Origin: Candidatus Falkowbacteria bacterium
GTDB taxonomy: Bacteria > Patescibacteriota > Patescibacteriia > Patescibacteriales > GWE2-39-37
Length of the DNA stretch: 64,000 nucleotides
Assembly: GCA_013336275.1 (NCBI GenBank)
Contig: JAAXUA010000004.1
Location: forward strand, 47,460 to 111,459
Reading direction: 5' to 3'
Positions 4,921 to 47,574 of this stretch are shown piece after piece. The position numbers and the translations under genes are program-made. The notes below the pieces were generated by a model. It had not been told where the DNA came from. It saw nothing but the letters and a program-made list of their open reading frames with translations, and did no database searches. The stretch's first letter is position 1, and every line of letters begins with the position of its first letter.

Positions 4921-5733
4921 TTAAAGCGCGAAGCGCACGAATTTCTCGACCTTGGCTCCGGCCAAAAGGTCCTTGATCTTCTTAGTATCGTCCTTGATGA
5001 ATTCCTGTTCGGTCAGGCAGACTTCTTCATAGTATTTATTGATCTTGCCGGTCATGATCTTCTCGATCATCGCCTCCGGCTTGCCCTCCTTCTTCAGCTG
5101 CTCGGCATAGATATCCTTCTCGCGCTGGAGTTCCTCGGCAGCTACCTCACCCGGCACAGAGCACTTCGGATTGGCGGCAGCAACCTGCATGGCCAGATCC
5201 CGAGCCAGCTCCTGCGCATTCGGGCGGTCGAGGGCGACCAAAGCGCCGATCTGCTCGCCAGCGTGGGAATAAGCTGCGACCGTTCCGCCGGAAGTCAGGG
5301 TAGCATATTGTTTCAATTCGATCTTCTCGCCTACGACCGAGCTCAAAGCTTCGATTGCCTGGCCGACAGTGCCGGCGTTGTCCAGATCGATATCCATCAA
5401 AGCCTCTTTAGAATCGACACGTGCCGCTTTGACTACCTCGAGCAGCTTGGCTGCGAAGGCCTGGAACTGCTCGCTGCGCACCACGAAATCGGTCTCAGCG
5501 CAGACAGAAAACATATAACCTTCGTTATTGTCTTCGTTAGTCGCGACTTTGACCAGGCCTTCGCCGGTCTCGCGATCGCTCCTCTTAGCGGCTTTGGCGA
5601 TGCCTTTCTTGCGCAGGACGTCCATCGCCTGTTCGAGATCGCCATTGGCCTCGGTCAAGGCGTTCTTACAGTCGGCCATGCCGGCGCCGGATTTTTCACG
5701 GAGTTCCTTAATGAGTTCGAGTGAAATAGCCAT
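4921..5733 (-). CDS. tsf: translation elongation factor Ts
   Basis: 270-aa ORF with the N-terminal ELIKELREKSGAGMADCKNAL UBA-like motif. It sits immediately downstream of rpsB. Confidence 0.95.
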   Translation of the reverse strand: MAISLELIKELREKSGAGMADCKNALTEANGDLEQAMDVLRKKGIAKAAKRSDRETGEGLVKVATNEDNNEGYMFSVCAETDFVVRSEQFQAFAAKLLEVVKAARVDSKEALMDIDLDNAGTVGQAIEALSSVVGEKIELKQYATLTSGGTVAAYSHAGEQIGALVALDRPNAQELARDLAMQVAAANPKCSVPGEVAAEELQREKDIYAEQLKKEGKPEAMIEKIMTGKINKYYEEVCLTEQEFIKDDTKKIKDLLAGAKVEKFVRFAL

Positions 5734-17199: not shown

Positions 17200-17871
17200 T
17201 CAGAACTGCAAGCTTCTTACGGTATCGACGATTTCTTTGACAGGGGGATCGGGCGGAAAGCCGTCCATCGACCCATGCGCCCGCCTGAGGTGGGCGACGA
17301 TCAGCAGCATGGCGGTTTCTTCGCCGTAAACCTTCGACACGGTCGCGTAGGCCTCGATGCCGTCGATCTCCACCAGCCTGGCAGCCTCATTCATCTCCTC
17401 GATCGACAATACCAGTTTTTCGTTGAGACGCTCCCTGATTTTCATCAGCCGGGAACAGAATTCCTCTTCCGTCAGCACGGTCTTGGCCGGATCGGCTTCG
17501 CCGATGCTGTGCCTTAGGACCTCATTGCCGGTCGCCAGCAAGGCGCGGACAAAATCGGTATTTTGGGACAGCGCCGCAAAAGCGCGATCCAACAGCTCCT
17601 GATATGCGGCAGAACTTCTCGGATACTCCTTGCCTTTCCACCACAAAGTCTGAGCGGATTGCCAGACCGGGTTCCTTTCGGTCCCGATCATTTTGGCTAC
17701 CCTGCCCTTGAACTGGCAGATGAGCACCTGAGTTTCAGGGTTCTCGAACTTGAAAGCCTGCAATAGCGCTTCCATGCAGCCGCATTCCACGCCATCGAAC
17801 AGGAAGGCGTATGCCCTGAAATTGGACAAATCGCCTGCCACACCTTTCATGTCGCCTCGGATATCAATCAT
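17200..17871 (-). CDS. NADAR (YbiA/DUF1768)-like domain protein with a ~70-aa C-terminal extension
   Basis: By-eye alignment to E. coli YbiA: GDLSNF..FDG...E..LQAFKF.., ..AKMIG..R and F..ALLATG..VL.H. It is a paralog of 20178-20780. Confidence 0.5.
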   Translation of the reverse strand: MIDIRGDMKGVAGDLSNFRAYAFLFDGVECGCMEALLQAFKFENPETQVLICQFKGRVAKMIGTERNPVWQSAQTLWWKGKEYPRSSAAYQELLDRAFAALSQNTDFVRALLATGNEVLRHSIGEADPAKTVLTEEEFCSRLMKIRERLNEKLVLSIEEMNEAARLVEIDGIEAYATVSKVYGEETAMLLIVAHLRRAHGSMDGFPPDPPVKEIVDTVRSLQF

Positions 17872-19669: not shown

Positions 19670-20071
19670 TCAATTAAAAGGAGACGGCACCACGCCCTCG
19701 CCGGTCAGCGACAGCAGTCCGGGGGACCACATGAACGCATCCGGTTGCCGGGACAAGGCCTCGAAATCTTCTTCGGCCAGAATCCTGATCGCCCGGCCTT
19801 CGTCGCCGATTTCGGCGTTAAAGGCGATCTTCTCAGACAGGTTCGCAAGCAGATTCAGCTCGAGCAGCTTGGCCTGCCGCTTGGGCAACAGTTCCCAGAC
19901 TTTCTTCAAGACCTCCAGATCGGTGCAGATGAACAGCTCGAGCCCTTCGCTGACCAAGGCCGGAAAAGTGCCCATCAGGCCGTGTTTCAGTATCAGCAGG
20001 TACCCGGGAATCGCTTCGTAGCCTTCAAGTCCCTGCTCTCTCGCTTCACCCATGGTTGTCGGTTTCTGCAT
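19670..20071 (-). CDS. hypothetical protein, downstream of NADAR-like gene 2
   Basis: 133-aa ORF with GGAG 8 nt upstream of the ATG. No recognisable domain. Confidence 0.6.
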   Translation of the reverse strand: MQKPTTMGEAREQGLEGYEAIPGYLLILKHGLMGTFPALVSEGLELFICTDLEVLKKVWELLPKRQAKLLELNLLANLSEKIAFNAEIGDEGRAIRILAEEDFEALSRQPDAFMWSPGLLSLTGEGVVPSPFN

Positions 20072-20177
20072 CTCGTATTCTCCTTATCGTTCAGGGTTGG
20101 ACTGCCATTGATCAGCTCAGAGACAAACGCTGATTTCGCGGTGGTTGTTATGATTTCATATCCTGTCATGCGCCACT

Positions 20178-20780
20178 TCAAGCCTTTCCGTGGCACACCC
20201 TCTCATGTTCCTGCGCCATTTCCGACTTGATGCGGTTTCCGCACGCCTCGCAGATGTAGCAGCAAGGAGCGAAATGCATCATCCCTGAATCTTTGTCGTG
20301 GCATGAACAGCCGCATTGATAAAGAAAAATAATGCTGCATCTCAGCTGCATCAGCCTGAAGCAGAATTCTTCCTCAGTCAGGATGTCTTCGTTCGGATCA
20401 GCTACGCCTATCGAGTGAGTCAGGACTTCAGTTCCCGTATCCCAGAGGGCCTTCCGGTAACTTTCATTCTGAATAAATAGAGCGGCATAGGCCCTGTCGA
20501 GCAATTCCTGATATTCCTGGCCGTGGCGATCATATGTTTTGCCGCGCCAGTTCAATTCGTGCTTGCCCTGCTTCCAGGTCTCAATTCGCTCAAGTCCGAA
20601 TCGCTTAGCCTCGATGCCGACCAGCTTGCACACCGACTCCTGCAGTGCCAGGTCGTCAGTCAGCAAAGACTGCAGAAAACCTTCCATCGAAGCGCACAAG
20701 ACGCCATCCAAGTAGAAGAAGTAGGCGGCGAAGTTGGTCAAGGCGCCAGCCGGGTAAGGCAATTTTGATTTGATCTCCAT
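20178..20780 (-). CDS. NADAR-like domain protein with a Cys-rich C-terminal tail
   Basis: Clear paralog of 17200-17871 (LTNFAAY..LDGV..SMEG; YQELLDRAYAAL; TGTEVLTHSIGVADP..ILTEEEFC). The tail is CGCSCHDKDSG..CCYICEACGN..CHG. Confidence 0.5.
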   Translation of the reverse strand: MEIKSKLPYPAGALTNFAAYFFYLDGVLCASMEGFLQSLLTDDLALQESVCKLVGIEAKRFGLERIETWKQGKHELNWRGKTYDRHGQEYQELLDRAYAALFIQNESYRKALWDTGTEVLTHSIGVADPNEDILTEEEFCFRLMQLRCSIIFLYQCGCSCHDKDSGMMHFAPCCYICEACGNRIKSEMAQEHERVCHGKA

Positions 20781-20826
20781 AAATCCTCCACTAAGGTCGG
20801 GATAAAAATCCGGTATTCATCTGCGC

Positions 20827-21138
20827 CTACCCGGTAAACGACTTCAAGTAAACATCGTACCAATCCGTACCGCTGCCCACGAGCACCTCGGTCCTCGCAC
20901 CGTTCTTCCTAGCTAGGAAGAAAACCTGCTTCGTGTAGTCGAAGCTTGGGACAGGCTCGCAGATCAAGGTGACCTGCTCGCCAACCTGCAATTGGGCAGC
21001 CGCTTTTTTGCTTGTGGTAAAGAAAAACTTACCACCCTGCTCCTTGACCATGTACTCACGGCCTTCATCTTTGGTAATTTCTCCAATCACGACCGTCACT
21101 ACTGCGACAACAATCGAACTGCAATTTTTAATGACCAT
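20827..21138 (-). CDS. hypothetical small protein with an N-terminal hydrophobic segment
   Basis: 103-aa ORF with SSIVVAVVTVVIG. It lies 46 nt upstream of NADAR-like gene 2 on the same strand. Confidence 0.5.
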   Translation of the reverse strand: MVIKNCSSIVVAVVTVVIGEITKDEGREYMVKEQGGKFFFTTSKKAAAQLQVGEQVTLICEPVPSFDYTKQVFFLARKNGARTEVLVGSGTDWYDVYLKSFTG

Positions 21139-21236
21139 GACTCAATCTCCTTTGTGATAGTTATTTTTTACAACTAGCTTAGTTTAAGGAAAATTTGATT
21201 TTATACCATAACACATTACTATTATTTTGTCCATCA

Positions 21237-21425
21237 TGCCCCATTAGGACAGGAGCTCACGCCTCACCAGTCCGCCGTCGCGGGCTGGTTCGTTGCCCTG
21301 GGCAGCGCAGAAGTGATTCCCATCACTTCTGCGGCGCTCGACTGCGATGTTGCTCTGGTGAGCAACATCTTGCTCACTGCTGCCCGCCTGCCTGCCGGTA
21401 GGCAGGTTCGAGTCCCATTCCAAAA
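21237..21425 (+). ncRNA. candidate structured RNA of unknown class (array of perfect hairpins)
   Basis: Four hairpins: 21267-21288 (9 bp), 21306-21333 (12 bp), 21346-21369 (10 bp) and 21391-21406 (6 bp), with a terminator immediately 3'. The only ORFs here are mutually antisense and implausible. Strand is assigned from a single T-G wobble. Confidence 0.3.
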
Positions 21426-21426
21426 T

Positions 21427-21474
21427 CAATAATAAAAAGGAGCACTTCTGACGAAGTGCTCCTTTTTATTATTG
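21427..21474. terminator. perfect 22-bp inverted repeat (loop TGAC) acting as a bidirectional terminator
   Basis: CAATAATAAAAAGGAGCACTTC / GAAGTGCTCCTTTTTATTATTG. The GC-rich inner stem has U-runs in both orientations. Confidence 0.7.
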
Positions 21475-21546
21475 GCTCGGGGATAGGGACTCTCACCGGG
21501 GCGGAAGCCCCACGCCTCACGCATTAGTTTTCTTTCGGCCCTATCC
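21475..21546 (-). other. orphan tRNA-Gln 3'-end fragment embedded in a ~66-nt stem-loop with a GGGGC-TTCC-GCCCC hairpin
   Basis: An 18-nt exact copy of 21591-21608. An 8-bp closing stem pairs 21481-21488 with 21539-21546. The 16-mer at 21498-21513 is identical to 43621-43636. Confidence 0.6.
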
Positions 21547-21558
21547 ACAAACAAAACA

Positions 21559-21584
21559 AAATCAGCCCCAGAAGGGACTGATTT
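21559..21584 (-). terminator. terminator hairpin trailing tRNA-Gln
   Basis: AAATCAG(T)CCC-TTCT-GGG(G)CTGATTT followed by a T-run on the minus strand. Confidence 0.65.
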
Positions 21585-21591
21585 CATTTTG

Positions 21592-21662
21592 CTCGGGGAT
21601 AGGGACTCGAACCCCAATTGACGGGACCAGAACCCGCTGTCCTACCATTAGACGATCCCCGA
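21592..21662 (-). tRNA. tRNA-Gln (anticodon CUG)
   Basis: Hand-folded: acceptor TCGGGGA/TCCCCGA, D arm GTCT-AATGGTA-GGAC, anticodon arm GCGGG-TTCTGGT-CCCGT, T arm TGGGG-TTCGAGT-CCCTA, discriminator G. CCA is not encoded. Confidence 0.85.
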
Positions 21663-21724
21663 ATATATGCATTTTTTCAATACAAAAAGGCGGTTAAGCC
21701 TTGTTTGCTATTGTAACCGAATTA

Positions 21725-25618: not shown

Positions 25619-28132
25619 TCAGATATTTACCCGCCGCCTAATCTCTTCTTCGATGATATTGCGATCCTGGCCGTATTTCAGGCGCGATAGGCTCTTGATC
25701 CTCATCGCCAGCTCGTCGCGTTTGATTCCGGGCAAGGGCCAGGGCGTAGCCATCGAGAAAGCCCGTGAGGCGGAATTGTCTATCAGCAGCTTGATGTAGG
25801 CCGAGAACTTCTCGACATTGATGAGGTCGTATTGGTTGAAAACCGGCGCGAACTCCTTGGACAATTCCTCGGCATCTTCGGAACCGATCTTGAAAGAGAC
25901 CCAGGTGCCGACGTTGCCGAAAACCGCGTCCTTGATCGAAGAGTCCTGGCCTTTGACCAGTTGTCCCAGATACTGGTGAGCCATGACCAGGTTGAGATTG
26001 TATTTGCGAGCTTCGGACAGGATGGAACAGATCGAATCGGTGGTGAAATTCTGAAACTCGTCGATATAGAGATAGAAATCCTTGCGCTGCTCTTTGGGCA
26101 TGTCGGTGCGGGACAAAGCGGCGACCAGGATCTTGCCGACCAGGATCATACCCAAGAGGTAGGCATTGAGCTCGCCGACCTGACCCTTGGGCAGGCTGAC
26201 CAAGAGGATCTTCTGCCGATCCATCAGGTCGCGCAAATTGAACGAGCTCTTCTGTTGGCCGATGATCGGCCTCATCATATCGTTGGAAATGAAGGAAGTC
26301 AGTTTCGAGGTGATATACGGCACGACGTTGGCCAAAGCCGCATCGCCCCCGGCTTTCTCCGCCTCTTTGCGCCAAAAATCGACGACCGTCGGATCGGAAC
26401 AGCGGGAGAGTTTCATCCGGCGGAACTCGGCGTCGGCCAAGACCTTGGGAATCTCCATTAGGGTCGAGCCGCTTTCCGGGTCAGACATGACCAGGAGCAT
26501 GGCGTTGCGCATATACTGCTCGAAGATCGGGCCGCCGGTGGATTTGAGGTCGTACAGCTTATCGAAAATCTTAATCATCTCATTAATGACGAACGACTTC
26601 TGCTCGGGATAGCGCGGATCGAACTCCATCAGATTCAAAGCCAGCGGGCGCTCGATGTCGGCCGGCGAGAACAGGATCACGTCCTCGGCCCGCTCCGGCG
26701 GGATACGCTTCAAGATATCGTCGATCAGGTCACCGTGCGGATCGATCACCCCGACGCCTTCTCCGTTCAAGATGTCCTGGATAGCCATCGAGGCCAAGAG
26801 GACGGACTTACCGACGCCGGACTTACCGACGATATAGGTATGGCGGCGGCGGTCTTCGCGCTTGATGCGCACGTCGCGCACCACGCCACGATAGATATTG
26901 CGTCCCAGGACGATGCCTTCGTTGGGGATTTCGGTCGGGGCCGGGGCGTGCTTAGCCGTCAGCCACAGGATGTTCGGCGTCTCGGTCCACCTGAGCGGCA
27001 GGTGGAACAGGCTGGACAGTTCTTCGGTATTCAGAAGGAAGCTCAGCTTATCGTCGAAGCGGCGATAGATATAATCCTTCATGAATTTCTTGTGCTTCCA
27101 GCTTTTAACGAAAGAGTTGATCTTGTTGTTGAAAGAATTGCCATATTCGTAAAGATTGTACTGGGCGAAGGCGCCGATGATGTTGGCCAGATAGCCGCGC
27201 GACTGCTGGAGGCTGCCGGTGCTGACGATGATGCGCAGATTGACGTCCAAACCGGCCTTGGCGTTCTTCTCTTCCAGATTCTTAAGGATCGCCTCGTCCA
27301 TGGCATTGGTCCGCTGCATCGTCTGCTGCTGTTGCTGCTTCTGTTTATCCTCCGGACTCGTGCCTTTGAAATAGCTGAAGAACTCGGCCCAGGGCGAAGT
27401 ATTCAAAGCCTCGTGCAGCGGCTTGCCTTGCCGGACTTTGGAGAAGACGCGGCTGGCTTTGCCGTGCCAAGCGCCTTTGGCGCTGCGCACGATATATTGG
27501 ATGACTAACGATTCATTCTCGCCCAGTTTCGACAGGACGTTGATGATCGAGTTCAGCGGGTCGGTCTCCATCTTGTTGTAAGTCCGGATCGGGAAGATGA
27601 AGCTGCGGCGCGTCTTGAGCCAGCCGAAATCGACGACGCTCTGCGGCGTGAAGATATTATAATCGCGCGCCTCTTCGACCACCGCTTCCGGGTAATGGGC
27701 CTGGACCTGCTGCTCGAGGTAGCGGGCCATCGGCCGCGGCGCCACCAAGTAGAACGCTATTACTTTCTTGCTGGCGACAATCTCGAAGGAAAAATGATCG
27801 CGTCGGCCAAAGAGCCACGGCAGGACGCCGCGCTCAGCCCGCAGGCCGCCGATTGAGGAAAACAGGGTCTCACCCCGGGCGATTTCCTCGCGCAGCTGCT
27901 GCACCGTCAAATTATTGTCCTTGTCGGTCGGCTTTTCCTTGGACAGGCGCACCAGATAGATGACATGGTCGAAGTAGTGGCTGCTCTTGGCGTAATGGGT
28001 GATAAGCTTCTTGATGATCGCCAGCACCACGAACAAGGCGACCAAGGCGCCGAAAGTATAGACCAGGGCCAGATCGACGAAAGCGGTCGGGTCGAGCGGC
28101 TGGCTCACAGGTTGTTCGAGTCCGTAGTTCAT
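25619..28132 (-). CDS. TraD/VirD4-type coupling-protein-like P-loop ATPase (membrane anchored)
   Basis: 837-aa ORF with an N-terminal TM helix, Walker A IVGKSGVGKS and Walker B YIDEFQNF. The overall layout resembles type IV secretion DNA-binding ATPases. Confidence 0.7.
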   Translation of the reverse strand: MNYGLEQPVSQPLDPTAFVDLALVYTFGALVALFVVLAIIKKLITHYAKSSHYFDHVIYLVRLSKEKPTDKDNNLTVQQLREEIARGETLFSSIGGLRAERGVLPWLFGRRDHFSFEIVASKKVIAFYLVAPRPMARYLEQQVQAHYPEAVVEEARDYNIFTPQSVVDFGWLKTRRSFIFPIRTYNKMETDPLNSIINVLSKLGENESLVIQYIVRSAKGAWHGKASRVFSKVRQGKPLHEALNTSPWAEFFSYFKGTSPEDKQKQQQQQTMQRTNAMDEAILKNLEEKNAKAGLDVNLRIIVSTGSLQQSRGYLANIIGAFAQYNLYEYGNSFNNKINSFVKSWKHKKFMKDYIYRRFDDKLSFLLNTEELSSLFHLPLRWTETPNILWLTAKHAPAPTEIPNEGIVLGRNIYRGVVRDVRIKREDRRRHTYIVGKSGVGKSVLLASMAIQDILNGEGVGVIDPHGDLIDDILKRIPPERAEDVILFSPADIERPLALNLMEFDPRYPEQKSFVINEMIKIFDKLYDLKSTGGPIFEQYMRNAMLLVMSDPESGSTLMEIPKVLADAEFRRMKLSRCSDPTVVDFWRKEAEKAGGDAALANVVPYITSKLTSFISNDMMRPIIGQQKSSFNLRDLMDRQKILLVSLPKGQVGELNAYLLGMILVGKILVAALSRTDMPKEQRKDFYLYIDEFQNFTTDSICSILSEARKYNLNLVMAHQYLGQLVKGQDSSIKDAVFGNVGTWVSFKIGSEDAEELSKEFAPVFNQYDLINVEKFSAYIKLLIDNSASRAFSMATPWPLPGIKRDELAMRIKSLSRLKYGQDRNIIEEEIRRRVNI

Positions 28133-41687: not shown

Positions 41688-42215
41688 AAGCTGAGATTAT
41701 TTCTTAGTTATCCATATTATATCATTTACCCTAAGCCTGGCCAAATACTCGACGTTTTAAAATTAATAACTATGGGGACAATAAATATTAAAGCGCCTAC
41801 AAAAAACACAAAAAGAATATTAAAATACGGACTGGGAATACTCGTTAAATCACCGTTACCCTCCAAACATTACTCCCATGAAAGCTGAACTTATCTTGCT
41901 ATCCAATTTTTAGTCACAGAAAGACTAACCACCATCGTGCTTTGACAGAAAAATAATTGTTATTTGCATTAATTTATTTAATTTTTAATCTAGCTGTCGA
42001 TTATTCATTTGTTGTTTAATGACTAATTTTGTGATAAATTGTAGGGGAAAATGACAGCAAGTGCTAAAGTTAAAATCGGAAATTTTTTTTCTTTATTCTC
42101 TGGTAATTGATCTGATATCCTTATCAATCGCTAGAAATATTTTGTACTAACTATATTTTGCAGATATTGGGTGTCAGTTTTTTTATTCTGCCACCTTCGC
42201 AACTCACTTAAACTT

Positions 42216-42677
42216 ATGCAATATAATCAAGGCATTGAAAAACAAGTTAAGGAATATAATTCATTGGATTGGAAAAATTCATACAGAAAACAATCGGCGC
42301 TTATTTTGCGCATATCAGCATGCGTGGTTATTTTGGCAAGCTTCCTTGGGGGCAACCCAATGTCTATTGTCGTCGCCATTGTCCAGCAATTAATAACTTT
42401 TATTCCCCTGTCATTTTTTATAACAATGGGGAAACGCTGGTCACTTGTAGTAACACTTTTTTTGTGGACATATGCCTTTATCACTGAAGTTGCCTCGTAT
42501 ATGGCCAACATTCAAAAAACAAGGAACATTACTTATGGAGAGTTTAAAATTATCCTAGCTGCAGCTGCTTTATACTTTTTCACCATGCGCATATTTATAA
42601 AGGCCTTAAGGGTGGAAAATGAGATACGACACGGCCAAGAAGATAAAAAAAACTCTTTCCAAGACAGCTCTAAATAA
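42216..42677 (+). CDS. hypothetical membrane protein encoded in the AT-rich island
   Basis: ATG at 42216 (the track begins at the GTG at 42171). It has four hydrophobic helices. Confidence 0.5.
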   Translation: MQYNQGIEKQVKEYNSLDWKNSYRKQSALILRISACVVILASFLGGNPMSIVVAIVQQLITFIPLSFFITMGKRWSLVVTLFLWTYAFITEVASYMANIQKTRNITYGEFKIILAAAALYFFTMRIFIKALRVENEIRHGQEDKKNSFQDSSK

Positions 42678-42763
42678 CCAACAATTTTTTACTTAACTGT
42701 AATACTATTTTTTTAATATCTGCCTTGATCAAATAAATTATCATAATCATCCTTAAGTCTCAT

Positions 42764-43489
42764 ATGAATATTAATAAACTAATAAACATTGGCCAAACTG
42801 GTGAGCTAAATAACCAAGAATTTAGTAGAAAGTTTTTATTCTCACTGCACAGAAACCCATTTGTAAAAACATTACCGTTAGAAGATTTAGTAAATCTTAT
42901 GCGGGGACTGGCAATCATAGAGACACAAGTCGAATACGGTTTTGGCAGCACCACGGTTATGGGTAAATTACTCAATATATTAATATCAAGAACAAGACAT
43001 GACGAAACACTATTAAACCACTTTGTTGATTGGGCTCTAGCAAATAGAACAAACCCCTACATTCCTTTTGGAACCAACGTACCAATTGAAATTAAATCAA
43101 TAAAAGAGCTTGCTGCACATGATAAGAAGCATTGGGAGCACATCGAAAAGATGGAAAAAGAAAAAATAGAAAGATCGAGAATAGCAAAGGAGAAGAAAAT
43201 AAAAATTATCCAGGAACATAAAAATAATGCAAACCTGAAAAACCAAGAGCGTGACAAAATTATAGAGAATCTAAGCAGACTTGATGTCATGAACCGTTTT
43301 GCATATATAATTAGATCTGAAAAGCCAATAGATTTTTTTCCAGAAAAATATGCCAAAGTGTCGTCAAAGGACTTGGCAAAAATACCCAAAATAACAATTG
43401 AGTTATTGTCACAAAAACTCAAATACTCCAAAAGGAATAGCGACTGGAAAAAATTACAAAAAATAATTAAACAAAGACCAGTAGAATAA
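42764..43489 (+). CDS. hypothetical Lys/Glu-rich protein encoded in the AT-rich island
   Basis: 241-aa ORF with a central charged coiled-coil-like stretch (KKHWEHIEKMEKEKIERSRIAKEKKIKIIQEHK). No recognisable domain. Confidence 0.5.
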   Translation: MNINKLINIGQTGELNNQEFSRKFLFSLHRNPFVKTLPLEDLVNLMRGLAIIETQVEYGFGSTTVMGKLLNILISRTRHDETLLNHFVDWALANRTNPYIPFGTNVPIEIKSIKELAAHDKKHWEHIEKMEKEKIERSRIAKEKKIKIIQEHKNNANLKNQERDKIIENLSRLDVMNRFAYIIRSEKPIDFFPEKYAKVSSKDLAKIPKITIELLSQKLKYSKRNSDWKKLQKIIKQRPVE

Positions 43490-43597
43490 GGTGCTGAATA
43501 CAATTTTTCACAGGACACTATCTATGAGTGCTTGAATTTTGACTGCTAGCCAAAACGCACAAATAAAATAGACCTCCGATTGGGAGGCCTATTTTAT

Positions 43598-43685
43598 TTG
43601 TGCGCCCACAAGGACTCGAAGGGGCGGAAGCCCCACACCACCGAAAGGTGACACAGTATTATATATTTTTTTAACCAATAAGCAA
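43598..43685 (-). ncRNA. candidate small RNA unit: promoter, then GGGGC-TTCC-GCCCC hairpin, then orphan tRNA-Lys 3'-end copy, followed by a terminator hairpin at 43557-43603
   Basis: Minus strand: TTGCTT (43685-43680), N16, TATAAT (43663-43658). The 23-nt stretch 43598-43620 is identical to 43785-43807. A 21-bp terminator hairpin lies at 43557-43603. Confidence 0.45.
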
Positions 43686-43787
43686 AAAGCACATTTCGAT
43701 ATTCTGAAACGTTCCTTTTACAAGATTCTCGAAGCTTATAAACCCACAAAATAAATCAGACCCCGAAATGGGGTCTGATTTATTTTG

Positions 43788-43860
43788 TGCGCCCACAAGG
43801 ACTCGAACCTTGGACCTTGTCCTTAAAAGGGACCTGCTCTACCAACTGAGCTATGGGCGC
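43788..43860 (-). tRNA. tRNA-Lys (anticodon UUU)
   Basis: Hand-folded: acceptor GCGCCCA/TGGGCGC, D arm GCTC-AGTTGGTA-GAGC, anticodon loop CTTTTAA, T arm CAAGG-TTCGAGT-CCTTG, discriminator A. CCA is not encoded. Confidence 0.88.
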
Positions 43861-43934
43861 TAATTTATACAAAAATAAAACTGCGCTAGGCAGAATTATC
43901 TTGATTAAGTGTATATTAACACGAATAAATGATT

Positions 43935-46977: not shown

Positions 46978-47574
46978 ATGCACTACCCTAAAGCAATACA
47001 AAGATTGATCGAGGCTTTCGCCAAATTGCCGACCGTCGGACCCAAGACGGCCGAACGTTTTGCGTTGTCGCTCTTGGCCCAATCAGAAAAAGATGTAGCC
47101 GAACTCAGCCAAGCGATCGCCACACTACAAGAGAATATCACTAAATGCCAAAGCTGCTTCGCTATCACCGAAGCCAGCCCCTGCCCCGTCTGCGCTGACC
47201 AACGGCGGCAGAACGGCCAGCTCTGCATCGTTTCCGATCAGCGCGACTATCTGGCAATCGAGTCGAGCCGGCAATTCCAGGGACGATTCTATGTCCTTGG
47301 CGCGGAGTTGAACCAACTCGAGGGCATCGGTCCGAGCAGCCTGAACCTTGAGCCTCTCCTGAAGCGGCTGCAGTCCGGCGAAATCCAAGAGGTTATCTTG
47401 GCTCTGAACCCAACCATTGAAGGCGAGACCACCAGCATGTATTTGGCCAAACTGCTCAGGCCGCTGCCAGTGAAAGTCACCCGCCTAGCCCGCGGTTTGC
47501 CCATGGGCGCCAACCTCGAATACGTAGACGAACTCACCCTTGGCAACGCTCTCAAATACCGCAATCAAATATAA
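46978..47574 (+). CDS. recR: recombination protein RecR
   Basis: LPTVGPKTAERFA helix-hairpin-helix, a C4 zinc finger (CQSC..CPVC) and a Toprim domain. I prefer the ATG at 46978 to the TTG at 46954. Confidence 0.93.
   Translation: MHYPKAIQRLIEAFAKLPTVGPKTAERFALSLLAQSEKDVAELSQAIATLQENITKCQSCFAITEASPCPVCADQRRQNGQLCIVSDQRDYLAIESSRQFQGRFYVLGAELNQLEGIGPSSLNLEPLLKRLQSGEIQEVILALNPTIEGETTSMYLAKLLRPLPVKVTRLARGLPMGANLEYVDELTLGNALKYRNQI

Follow-up and report, generated by a model that had tools for sequence, protein, structure and literature searches.

Results

Two tRNA genes of the window are followed by a hairpin and a copy of their own 3' end

The stretch of DNA analysed here (the window, 64,000 nt; positions 47,460 to 111,459 of contig JAAXUA010000004.1, assembly GCA_013336275.1) comes from a metagenome-assembled genome (MAG) of Candidatus Falkowbacteria, with the S2, GyrB, and DnaB proteins of the window corresponding to NTW22683.1, NTW22690.1, and NTW22723.1, respectively. 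Three tRNA genes were found by ARAGORN and Rfam, all on the minus strand, and two of them, tRNA-Gln(CUG) and tRNA-Lys(UUU), are followed by a short unit that contains no open reading frame (ORF) and ends in a second copy of the tRNA 3' end. It is well supported that these units belong to a family of small, non-coding insertion modules lying behind tRNA genes in Candidatus Falkowbacteria and other Patescibacteria, a tRNA-linked family that appears to be undescribed so far. Hereafter, H designates the GC hairpin of a unit, X1 and X2 the direct copies of the tRNA 3' end, X' the inverted copy, W the window, and L followed by a number a retrieved locus.

At the tRNA-Gln locus, the sequence GCTCGGGGATAGGGACTC occurs exactly in X1 and X2 (Table 1) and at no third place in the window; with up to three mismatches allowed, 0.02 matches were expected, and none of 100 shuffles reached two. 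The sequence TGCGCCCACAAGGACTCGAA of the tRNA-Lys locus is likewise exact at 43601-43620 and 43788-43807 and absent elsewhere in the window. The exact direct repeat is 24 nt long at this locus, and the likeness runs on at 81% over 70 nt into the terminator. Both copies begin within the T loop, and the 18-nt tRNA-Gln copy reported in a preliminary description of this DNA is exact; all other sequence statements of that description are correct as well. The 16-mer GGGGCGGAAGCCCCAC, present only at 21498-21513 and 43621-43636, abuts the tRNA-end copy at both places, and the link that had been drawn between the two loci on this basis is real and general, the same layout recurring in other Patescibacteria. 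The Gln unit is of a short class (repeat-bounded segment of about 98 nt) and the Lys unit of a long class (about 166 nt).

The Gln copy had been taken for an orphan tRNA end, closed into a stem-loop by a new 8-mer (ccctatcc, 21539-21546). Indeed, the 8-mer is complementary to the tRNA-derived copy; it forms, however, the core of X', in which tRNA positions 49-74 are copied in inverted orientation and which was found in nearly every unit. The pairing of the proposed stem-loop was recovered; in energy, the 81-nt stretch 21470-21550 that contains it is not exceptional when folded alone (z = -1.27). The Lys unit is exceptional in this respect (z = -4.44), its fold being a junction closed by X':X. 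The locus is a complete, recurrent module rather than an orphan, and its 3' half is as invariant as the tRNA in three orthologous loci. The CCA after the Gln copy, which had suggested a mature tRNA end, is attributed to chance, because CCA is limited to this genome and orthologs L115 and L133 read CAA.

No internal promoter was found in the Gln unit by a promoter scan, and none was reported in the Lys unit, where a weak candidate in the spacer was seen by eye only. A search of the whole window at Rfam gathering thresholds retrieved only the three true tRNAs, ARAGORN detected no other cloverleaf or tmRNA, and permissive Rfam searches (21100-21720 at E ≤ 10, 43480-43900 at E ≤ 1, and L057) returned only real tRNAs and hairpin noise.

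Table 1. Features of the tRNA-Gln and tRNA-Lys loci (positions in the window)
Feature	Position	Strand	Remarks
Promoter of tRNA-Gln	21738-21710	-	TTGACA-17-TACAAT
tRNA-Gln(CUG) gene	21591..21662	-	ARAGORN and Rfam, 55.6 bits; proximal copy completes the intact gene
X1 of Gln unit	21591-21608	-	Final 18 nt of tRNA-Gln
Terminator 1 of Gln unit	21553..21590	-	AAATCAGTCCC-TTCT-GGGGCTGATTT and T tract; directly behind the tRNA
X' of Gln unit	21532..21552	-	Degenerate inverted copy of T arm and acceptor 3' strand
X' core	21539-21546	-	GGATAGGG; the 8-mer of the preliminary description, best-preserved part of Gln X'
Loop and small pre-hairpin	21512..21531	-	AUGC-GUGAG-GCGU; hairpin invariant, loop variable in orthologs
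H of Gln unit	21498..21511	-	GGGGC-UUCC-GCCCC on the tRNA-sense strand; common to the Lys unit and at least about 45 loci of other Patescibacteria
Junction and X2 of Gln unit	21475..21497	-	GGUGA, then X2 (21475-21492), from T loop to discriminator plus C
Terminator 2 of Gln locus	21429..21472	-	Bidirectional hairpin; outer edge of conserved block
S-type unit	21237..21421	-	GC-rich, without H; adjoins Gln unit
tRNA-Lys(UUU) gene	43787..43860	-	ARAGORN and Rfam, 70.7 bits; proximal copy completes the intact gene
X1 of Lys unit	43788-43807	-	20-mer; 24-nt exact repeat extends into the following flank
Terminator 1 of Lys unit	43748..43786	-	About 76% similar to terminator 1 of Gln unit
X' of Lys unit	43721..43747	-	GTGGGTTTATAAGCTTCGAGAATCTTG; imperfect inverted copy of tRNA-Lys 49-74, several G.U-type changes
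AT-rich internal region	43637..43720	-	Long-class spacer; two predicted hairpins including CACC-UUUC-GGUG at 43639-43650
H of Lys unit	43621..43634	-	
X2 of Lys unit	43597..43620	-	TTCGAGTCCTTGTGGGCGCACAAA; 24-nt exact direct repeat, first T-loop base to 4 nt beyond discriminator
Terminator 2 of Lys locus	43557..43603	-	

The same layout recurs behind at least 13 types of tRNA

We scanned species-representative genomes for the hairpin followed by RARTCC within 12 nt, comparison genomes being read as 8-kb pieces. At least 120 loci were obtained, and all counts of units refer to the matches listed, about 75 of which were chance matches in coding DNA of unrelated phyla. The layout of the window turned up in roughly 25 Patescibacteria MAGs, with at least about 45 instances behind 13 or more types of tRNA (Arg, Ser, Leu with four anticodons, Lys, Ala, Thr, Gly, Val, Tyr, Ile, Met, Cys, and Gln). 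At these loci, the hairpin GGGGCTTCCGCCCC directly precedes TTC[GA]A[GA]TCC, followed by the 3' strands of the T stem and acceptor of a tRNA, and in nearly every case the distance from H to an upstream, intact tRNA with a matching 3' end is 71-80 nt or 143-161 nt. H served as the search key, which overstates its universality; there are also units with other hairpins.

The MAGs carrying units were labelled Falkowbacteria, Parcubacteria, Saccharibacteria, Patescibacteria, 'bacterium', or 'binchicken' Gammaproteobacteria. Seven units (L115, L057, L061, L063, L076, L078, and L083) are present in a single MAG, CAYUCS01 ('uncultured Gammaproteobacteria bacterium binchicken_co269_189'), which is syntenic with the window (80-82% at the nucleotide level) and whose S2 and GyrB proteins fall into the same 90% clusters as those of the window. 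Judging by these proteins and this synteny, CAYUCS01 is a Falkowbacteria relative of the window, and the other unit-carrying 'binchicken' Gammaproteobacteria MAGs are probably mislabelled as well.

On the tRNA strand, the order of the unit is tRNA (with its final 21-24 nt as X1), terminator 1, X', spacer, H, X2, and native flank; the module as a whole measures 110-190 nt and the repeat-bounded segment about 100-190 nt. Terminator 1 consists of an A tract, a hairpin, and a T tract, directly behind which X' starts, repeating tRNA positions 49-74 imperfectly and in inverted orientation. Together, X1, terminator 1, and X' make up one long palindrome. The spacer is a linker of about 10 nt in the short class, the geometry of which is fixed, and a linker plus about 70 AT-rich nt in the long class; its sequence follows the tRNA lineage and is not common across units. 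The 3' strand of H, GCCCC, sits where the 5' strand of the T stem would be. X2 is an exact copy, starting at T54 in 25 of the 32 units and ending 1-4 nt past the discriminator in 24 of the 32; the left boundary of the repeat varies (52, 53, 54, 57, or 58), as does the right one (+1 to +12). This geometry is that of the T-loop type of tRNA attachment (att) site. In many units, X' departs from a perfect complement at the two positions facing G57 and A58, and a tandem G.A/A.G mismatch would result. The unit is not a degenerate copy of a full tRNA, as antisense homology ends at positions 48-51 and the tRNA body has no counterpart in sense orientation.

Several long-class spacers (e.g., L017, L030, L127, L063, and L123) contain an (A)UGAUGG-like motif 8-12 nt before H, and a YUGAU-like motif was seen soon after X'. 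Together with the tandem G.A mismatch, these motifs could form GA-type (kink-turn-like) motifs. A CCA that follows X2 and is absent from the gene itself was observed in 6 of about 32 units (W-Gln, L125, L058, L011, L038, and L019), versus about 2 expected, a weak excess that may be due to chance.

One unit was an orphan and two were irregular. In the orphan, at L057 (4790-4985), a terminator, X', a spacer, and H lead up to the 3' end of a Ser-type tRNA, while neither ARAGORN nor Rfam detected a tRNA gene upstream. At L094 (about 1520-1760), the 3' end behind H belongs to a different tRNA-Met, and a partial copy of the resident tRNA end and duplicated flank come next. At L019 (about 5085-5190), the spacer holds a sense copy of tRNA-Leu 26-64, and X2 mismatches the upstream tRNA.

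Occupied and empty sites, arrays, and distal DNA

A 115-nt unit of like architecture, with a different hairpin and an 18-nt repeat at its bounds, was found at tRNA-Gln in the metagenome contigs L139 and L148. Four orthologous loci (L143, L149, L138, and L142) have the same upstream promoter and downstream flank, with exactly the 115-nt unit missing. This comparison of occupied and empty sites indicates that the modules are insertions bounded by direct repeats of 18-24 nt. In the L139 unit, X' is only about 60% complementary; its degeneracy already in this insertion indicates that X' is carried and not made at insertion. The H-type units of the window itself yielded no empty site, W, L115, and L133 all being occupied.

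X2 retains the native flank: in L036, L073, and L053, the next tRNA gene of the operon follows with the native spacing kept, and lies only 5 nt past X2 in L036. Tandem arrays were observed at L113/L023, L119, L092, and L133. In a metagenome scan keyed on the 25-mer of the tRNA-Gln 3' end (25 loci), 21 of the 25 contigs with the identical 25-mer had no second copy. Irregular remnants were found at tRNA-Gln in L146 and L151, and X2 had decayed in L064 and L030.

At three loci, namely L023/L024, the Lys unit of the window, and the Gln array of the window, the DNA on the distal side of the units is variable or foreign. The first of these belongs to the Parcubacteria MAG MFD02416 (L113 7640-8000, L023 1-8000, and L024 1-720), in which tRNA-Gln is followed by two tandem units, then by 8.6 kb of metabolic genes encoding a symporter, an asparaginase, an S51 peptidase, an aminotransferase, a GNAT protein, and an AMP-ligase, with no integrase, and finally by a degenerate copy of the tRNA-Gln 3' end and a third unit. 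We rejected the idea that these 8.6 kb are the cargo of a unit, as they sit between units, are without integrase, and have a left end without X'.

Distal to the Gln array, window 20051-21236 and L115 947-3216, from the closest relative of the window, could not be aligned, though both sides are syntenic; the stretch is a small flexible island. In the window, it contains a 103-aa ORFan and a gene of the Phage_30_3 (GP30.3) family, a second GP30.3 copy being located at 17200-17871. About 4 kb from the Gln locus, an 837-aa protein (25619-28132) has weak matches to a TrwB/TraG-type coupling protein and to DUF8128; a link to DNA transfer is possible. The DNA directly distal to the Lys unit (about 41688-43556) has a GC content of 35%, versus about 52%, and looks like recently acquired DNA. 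Its ORFs at 42171-42677 and 42764-43489 had no Pfam, PHROG, or PADLOC match, and a third tRNA-Lys copy was not found at its far end.

Logan short-read contigs (SRR11449212; L001, L002, L003, and L128) stop at about window positions 21637, 21326, 43789, and 43689. These breaks sit in AT-rich or repeated stretches, with no presence/absence variation evident; as contigs of the same organism end within both tRNA-unit loci, these loci break assemblies.

Conservation and strand asymmetry of the units

We aligned the Gln locus of the window with its orthologs L115 and L133. None of the 72 columns of the tRNA was variable, and neither was any of the 50 columns spanning the pre-hairpin, H, the junction, and X2. 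Variable columns amounted to 4 out of 42 in terminator 1, 2 out of 10 in the X' core, 4 out of 14 in the loop, and 23 out of 48 in terminator 2. The differences within the unit group L115 with L133, as does the flank, which suggests vertical descent under constraint and not independent arrivals.

Homologous Lys units gave a similar picture: from X' through the linker and H to X, L036 and L073 are almost identical, while terminator 1 and the flanks diverge. X' tracks changes of the tRNA, with T loops reading TTCGAAT or TTCAAAT paired with ATTCGAA or ATTTGAA, respectively. Two acceptor pairs are swapped between L084 and L036, and compensatory X'/X changes were found within the Lys units L036, L069, and L084.

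Substitutions in the acceptor and T-stem part of X' were asymmetric, with C>T at 22 of 56 positions (39%) and G>A at 6 of 157 (3.8%; Fisher p = 5e-10). A C>T change in X' corresponds to G.U on the sense strand, and changes are thus wobble-compatible on the tRNA-sense strand only. This asymmetry favours folding of the tRNA-sense strand, a reading with which RNA and single-stranded DNA would fit equally.

A second, hairpin-less unit adjoins the Gln unit

The S-type unit of the window starts with an inverted T-arm copy, GGAATGGGACTCGAACC (21405-21421), which is followed by a GC-rich multi-helix body, GGTGAGGCGT, and a degenerate third copy of the tRNA-Gln end (21237-21258). Units of this type close with GGTGAGGCG and a copy of the tRNA-Gln 3' end, which is perfect in L133. 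Copies of about 165 nt were found at three tRNA loci (window 21237-21421, L133 238-402, L076 5236-5400, and L083 3015-3180); those in the relative MAG stand behind units at tRNA-Leu(CAA) and tRNA-Leu(TAA). The fold of the four sequences comprises 46 predicted pairs, 10 of them with compensatory double changes, and X':X forms the outer closing helix. The S unit had no match in Rfam or IMG/VR, and ARAGORN and Rfam were negative for a tmRNA or two-piece tmRNA in this GC-rich region. By itself, it may represent a structured RNA or an element of single-stranded DNA that has so far gone undescribed.

Discussion

Possible readings: an integrative module or a structured RNA

We give about an even chance to the units being att-type integrative modules that are devoid of cargo, mobilised in trans, and folded on the sense strand. 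This reading is ranked first because integrase-type recombination at the T loop produces just such a repeat geometry, with empty sites, arrays, and neighbouring islands. Among the explanations put forward in the preliminary description, att-type sites of a family of tRNA-targeting elements also fit best, given the repeats starting in the T loop, the tandem arrays, and the occupied and empty sites of a sister module. The unit would be the integrated form of a minimal element without cargo, entering through site-specific recombination with a crossover in or beside the T loop. The element would bring a new 3' end and a terminator, so that the tRNA would stay functional. X1 and X2 would act as core sites and H and X' as accessory architecture, X' forming pairs with the sequence of the tRNA 3' end in RNA or single-stranded DNA of the tRNA-sense strand. 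The recombinase would act in trans and, after insertion, the unit would be kept by selection and could be duplicated into arrays.

Several points weigh against such a module. Neither the units nor the about 30 window ORFs scanned, which are housekeeping or of no assigned function and do not include about 20 ORFs at 46-64 kb, yielded an integrase, another recombinase, or a reverse transcriptase. At none of the at least about 45 loci is H separated from the tRNA by a gene, or does an integrase-bearing island, as envisaged in the preliminary description, lie between the repeats; a larger, autonomous relative was not found. No autonomous partner with the same att sites was found in the fetched genome, metagenome, or viral loci, and scans of IMG/VR for a phage or plasmid attP gave only chance coding matches for the H/T-loop junction and none for the tRNA-Gln core. 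Known tRNA-targeting integrases each serve a single tRNA, as in tycheposons (10.1101/2020.12.28.424599), whereas at least seven tRNAs in one small genome have a common H here, with X and X' matching each tRNA; a simple integrase model leaves the origin of new tRNA specificities unexplained. A merely selfish and immobile remnant would not be expected to keep H, the pre-hairpin, and X2 unchanged in place in orthologs of vertical descent, and this constancy looks like function. Part of the exactness with which H is conserved is due to ascertainment, H having been the search key. Finally, X':X pairing is 62% Watson-Crick and 16% G.U, with 22% mismatch, and is thermodynamically weak in many units (mean z = -1.2).

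The unit is possibly, though rather less probably, a host-maintained structured RNA that contains X', the spacer, H, and X2 and arises by read-through from the tRNA promoter. Its X':X2 helix would mimic the acceptor/T-stem stack, as a minihelix with an insert closed by H, and would be read by tRNA-handling enzymes or a specific H-binding protein, serving its own tRNA as a signal for processing, a decoy, or a regulator; the insertion from which the unit stems would then lie in the distant past. Such an RNA is consistent with a 3' module as invariant as the tRNA beside variable loops and a variable terminator 2, with the near identity of L036 and L073 between divergent terminators and flanks, and with an asymmetry that is wobble-only on the transcribed strand. 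The compensatory changes of the Lys units, the X':X-closed fold of the Lys unit of the window, the fixed geometry of the short class, and the 10 compensatory double-change pairs of the S-type unit, obtained from only four sequences and enclosed by an X':X helix, point in the same direction. However, no promoter was found within units, and as X' starts just behind a strong terminator, expression as RNA would need read-through. The units match no Rfam family, X':X is mismatched at 22% of its positions, X' brings many units no gain in energy, and the T loop is without a closing T stem, a true tRNA-like elbow not being predicted. Moreover, units are missing at many tRNAs and relatives, including the 21 contigs mentioned above, and are therefore dispensable, and we could name no function that needs an exact 3'-end copy for at least 13 amino-acid identities.

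A duplicative, target-copying insertion is improbable, even though it would best explain how one element came to stand at many tRNA identities. A nick in the T loop of any tRNA gene and a staggered second cut past the gene would allow a templated segment ending in H to be joined at the nick; gap repair would leave 21-24 nt in two copies as a target-site duplication, and the free end, by folding back and acting as a primer, would give rise to X' and the palindromic "terminator". The precise junction between H and T54 and the narrow repeat of 21-24 nt agree with this scheme, as do the constant match of X and X' to the resident tRNA and the span of X', which covers positions 49-74 only and ends just past the T loop. 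X1, terminator 1, and X' form a continuous palindrome in W-Lys and L017, the left arm re-uses 11 nt of native flank in L053, and the short and long classes look like 5' truncation. The X' of L139, with its low complementarity, was nevertheless not made as a perfect copy, both boundaries of the repeat vary, the spacers are specific to tRNA lineages, and neither a reverse transcriptase nor a transposase was found among the ORFs tested. To our knowledge, no target-copying insertion of this kind exists in bacteria, which also counts against it.

It is very improbable that the units are inert scars or chance repeats, i.e., att leftovers of vanished islands that now lack both structure and function. 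In favour of scars, the 3' ends of tRNA genes are a classic place of integration, and irregular remnants (L146 and L151) and decayed X2 copies (L064 and L030) exist; against them, one ordered architecture recurs at least about 45 times, the 3' module has no variable column beside a terminator with 23 out of 48, and substitutions are strand-asymmetric. A plus-strand antisense RNA or primer-binding site for the tRNA 3' end, as once proposed from its complementarity to that end and from the GNRA-type GGAA tetraloop of H on the plus strand, is scarcely credible, because of the strand asymmetry, by which the common X' changes turn into A.C mismatches on that strand, and because no reverse transcriptase or retroelement was found nearby among the ORFs tested, the complement of CCA being missing in orthologs and hairpin variants having no GNRA loop.

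Comparison with known systems

According to what Williams reportedly described in 2002, attachment sites of tRNA-targeting integrative elements may cross over in the T loop. In mycobacteriophage Ms6, attB lies within the T loop of tRNA-Ala (PMC1762012). The units resemble such sites in their direct repeat from the T loop to the 3' end, in the regeneration of the tRNA, in the native flank going with the distal copy, in the presence of empty and occupied sites among relatives, and in tandem accretion. They differ in that only about 100-190 nt without genes lie between the repeats, in always carrying an inverted end of the same tRNA and a GC hairpin abutting the T loop, in one hairpin serving at least 13 tRNA identities (at least seven in one genome), and in a distal copy that is conserved and does not decay.

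Cis-mobilisable elements (CIMEs) are flanked by att sites, have no recombination genes, and are mobilised by a related integrative and conjugative element (ICE), as described for ICESt1 and ICESt3 of Streptococcus thermophilus. Like CIMEs, the units are non-autonomous, bounded by att sites, and presumably mobilised in trans; CIMEs, however, are kilobase-sized and have an identifiable autonomous partner, whereas none was found for the units in the fetched loci. Folded, single-stranded recombination sites are known from integrons (attC) and from the CTX phage (attP(+)). These are imperfect palindromes active in one strand only, a property that the units may share, and they too combine variable sequence with a conserved architecture and form arrays of short cassettes without ORFs; the units, in contrast, have no intI/attI or dif context, and the arms of their palindrome copy the neighbouring tRNA. 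An integron attC site was rejected, as RYYYAAC...GTTRRRY is not present, the order of GTTC and GAAC is reversed or internal, and no integrase was found in the tested ORFs. Plant mitochondrial t-elements and the MALAT1 mascRNA are tRNA-like processing elements or minihelices. A helix resembling acceptor and T stem downstream of a gene, potentially readable by tRNA-processing enzymes, is common to them and to the units, but the latter have no closed T arm or Rfam tRNA score and copy the tRNA exactly on one strand and loosely on the other.

The X'/X pair could be regarded as the inverted repeats of a miniature inverted-repeat transposable element (MITE), but there is no separate short duplication, the repeat of 18-32 nt being itself one arm and matching the host tRNA. 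A retroelement primer-binding site was also dismissed, with no reverse transcriptase found in the tested ORFs, CCA not conserved, and a strand asymmetry opposite to that expected.

The integrases of Prochlorococcus tycheposons are each specific for one tRNA (10.1101/2020.12.28.424599). In these elements, as around the units, tRNA genes seed variable islands, partial tRNA copies separate elements, and degenerate remnants build up; tycheposons carry an integrase, however, and their partial tRNAs are plain att repeats without X' or hairpin and without in-place conservation (10.1101/2020.12.28.424599). Group I introns of Patescibacteria occur at a new tRNA site, at position 35/36 (10.1101/2025.07.03.662931). 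The units do not correspond to such introns, as they lie at the T loop and their first tRNA copy is complete and followed by a terminator. Arrays of the TIGR-Tas or box C/D-like type (PMC12045711) were rejected as well, their architecture being unrelated. UGAUG/CUGA-like motifs were seen in some long-class spacers.

It is doubtful, and suggested only tentatively, that the units form structured, non-autonomous mobile elements of a new class, or a host system, able to colonise essentially any tRNA gene or, alternatively, a new tRNA-specific family of structured RNA. Recognition would then proceed via the universal T loop and the hairpin, with X' as a guide-like or self-templated arm matching the target, a targeting logic that would be undescribed for integrases, transposases, or retroelements.

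Implications

Distal copies of tRNA ends can be taken for pseudo-tRNAs by annotation pipelines, and contigs of short-read assemblies break where the repeats lie. Should the units be RNAs, they would make up a large family, missing from present catalogues, with a one-to-one relation to tRNAs. If they are mobile, the tiny genomes of Patescibacteria, with their single-copy tRNA genes, host a family of minimal elements that insert harmlessly at tRNA genes and mark the proximal edge of variable islands. A single recombination system serving many tRNA identities through a common hairpin and the universal T loop would be unusual, and might provide a possible insertion tool.

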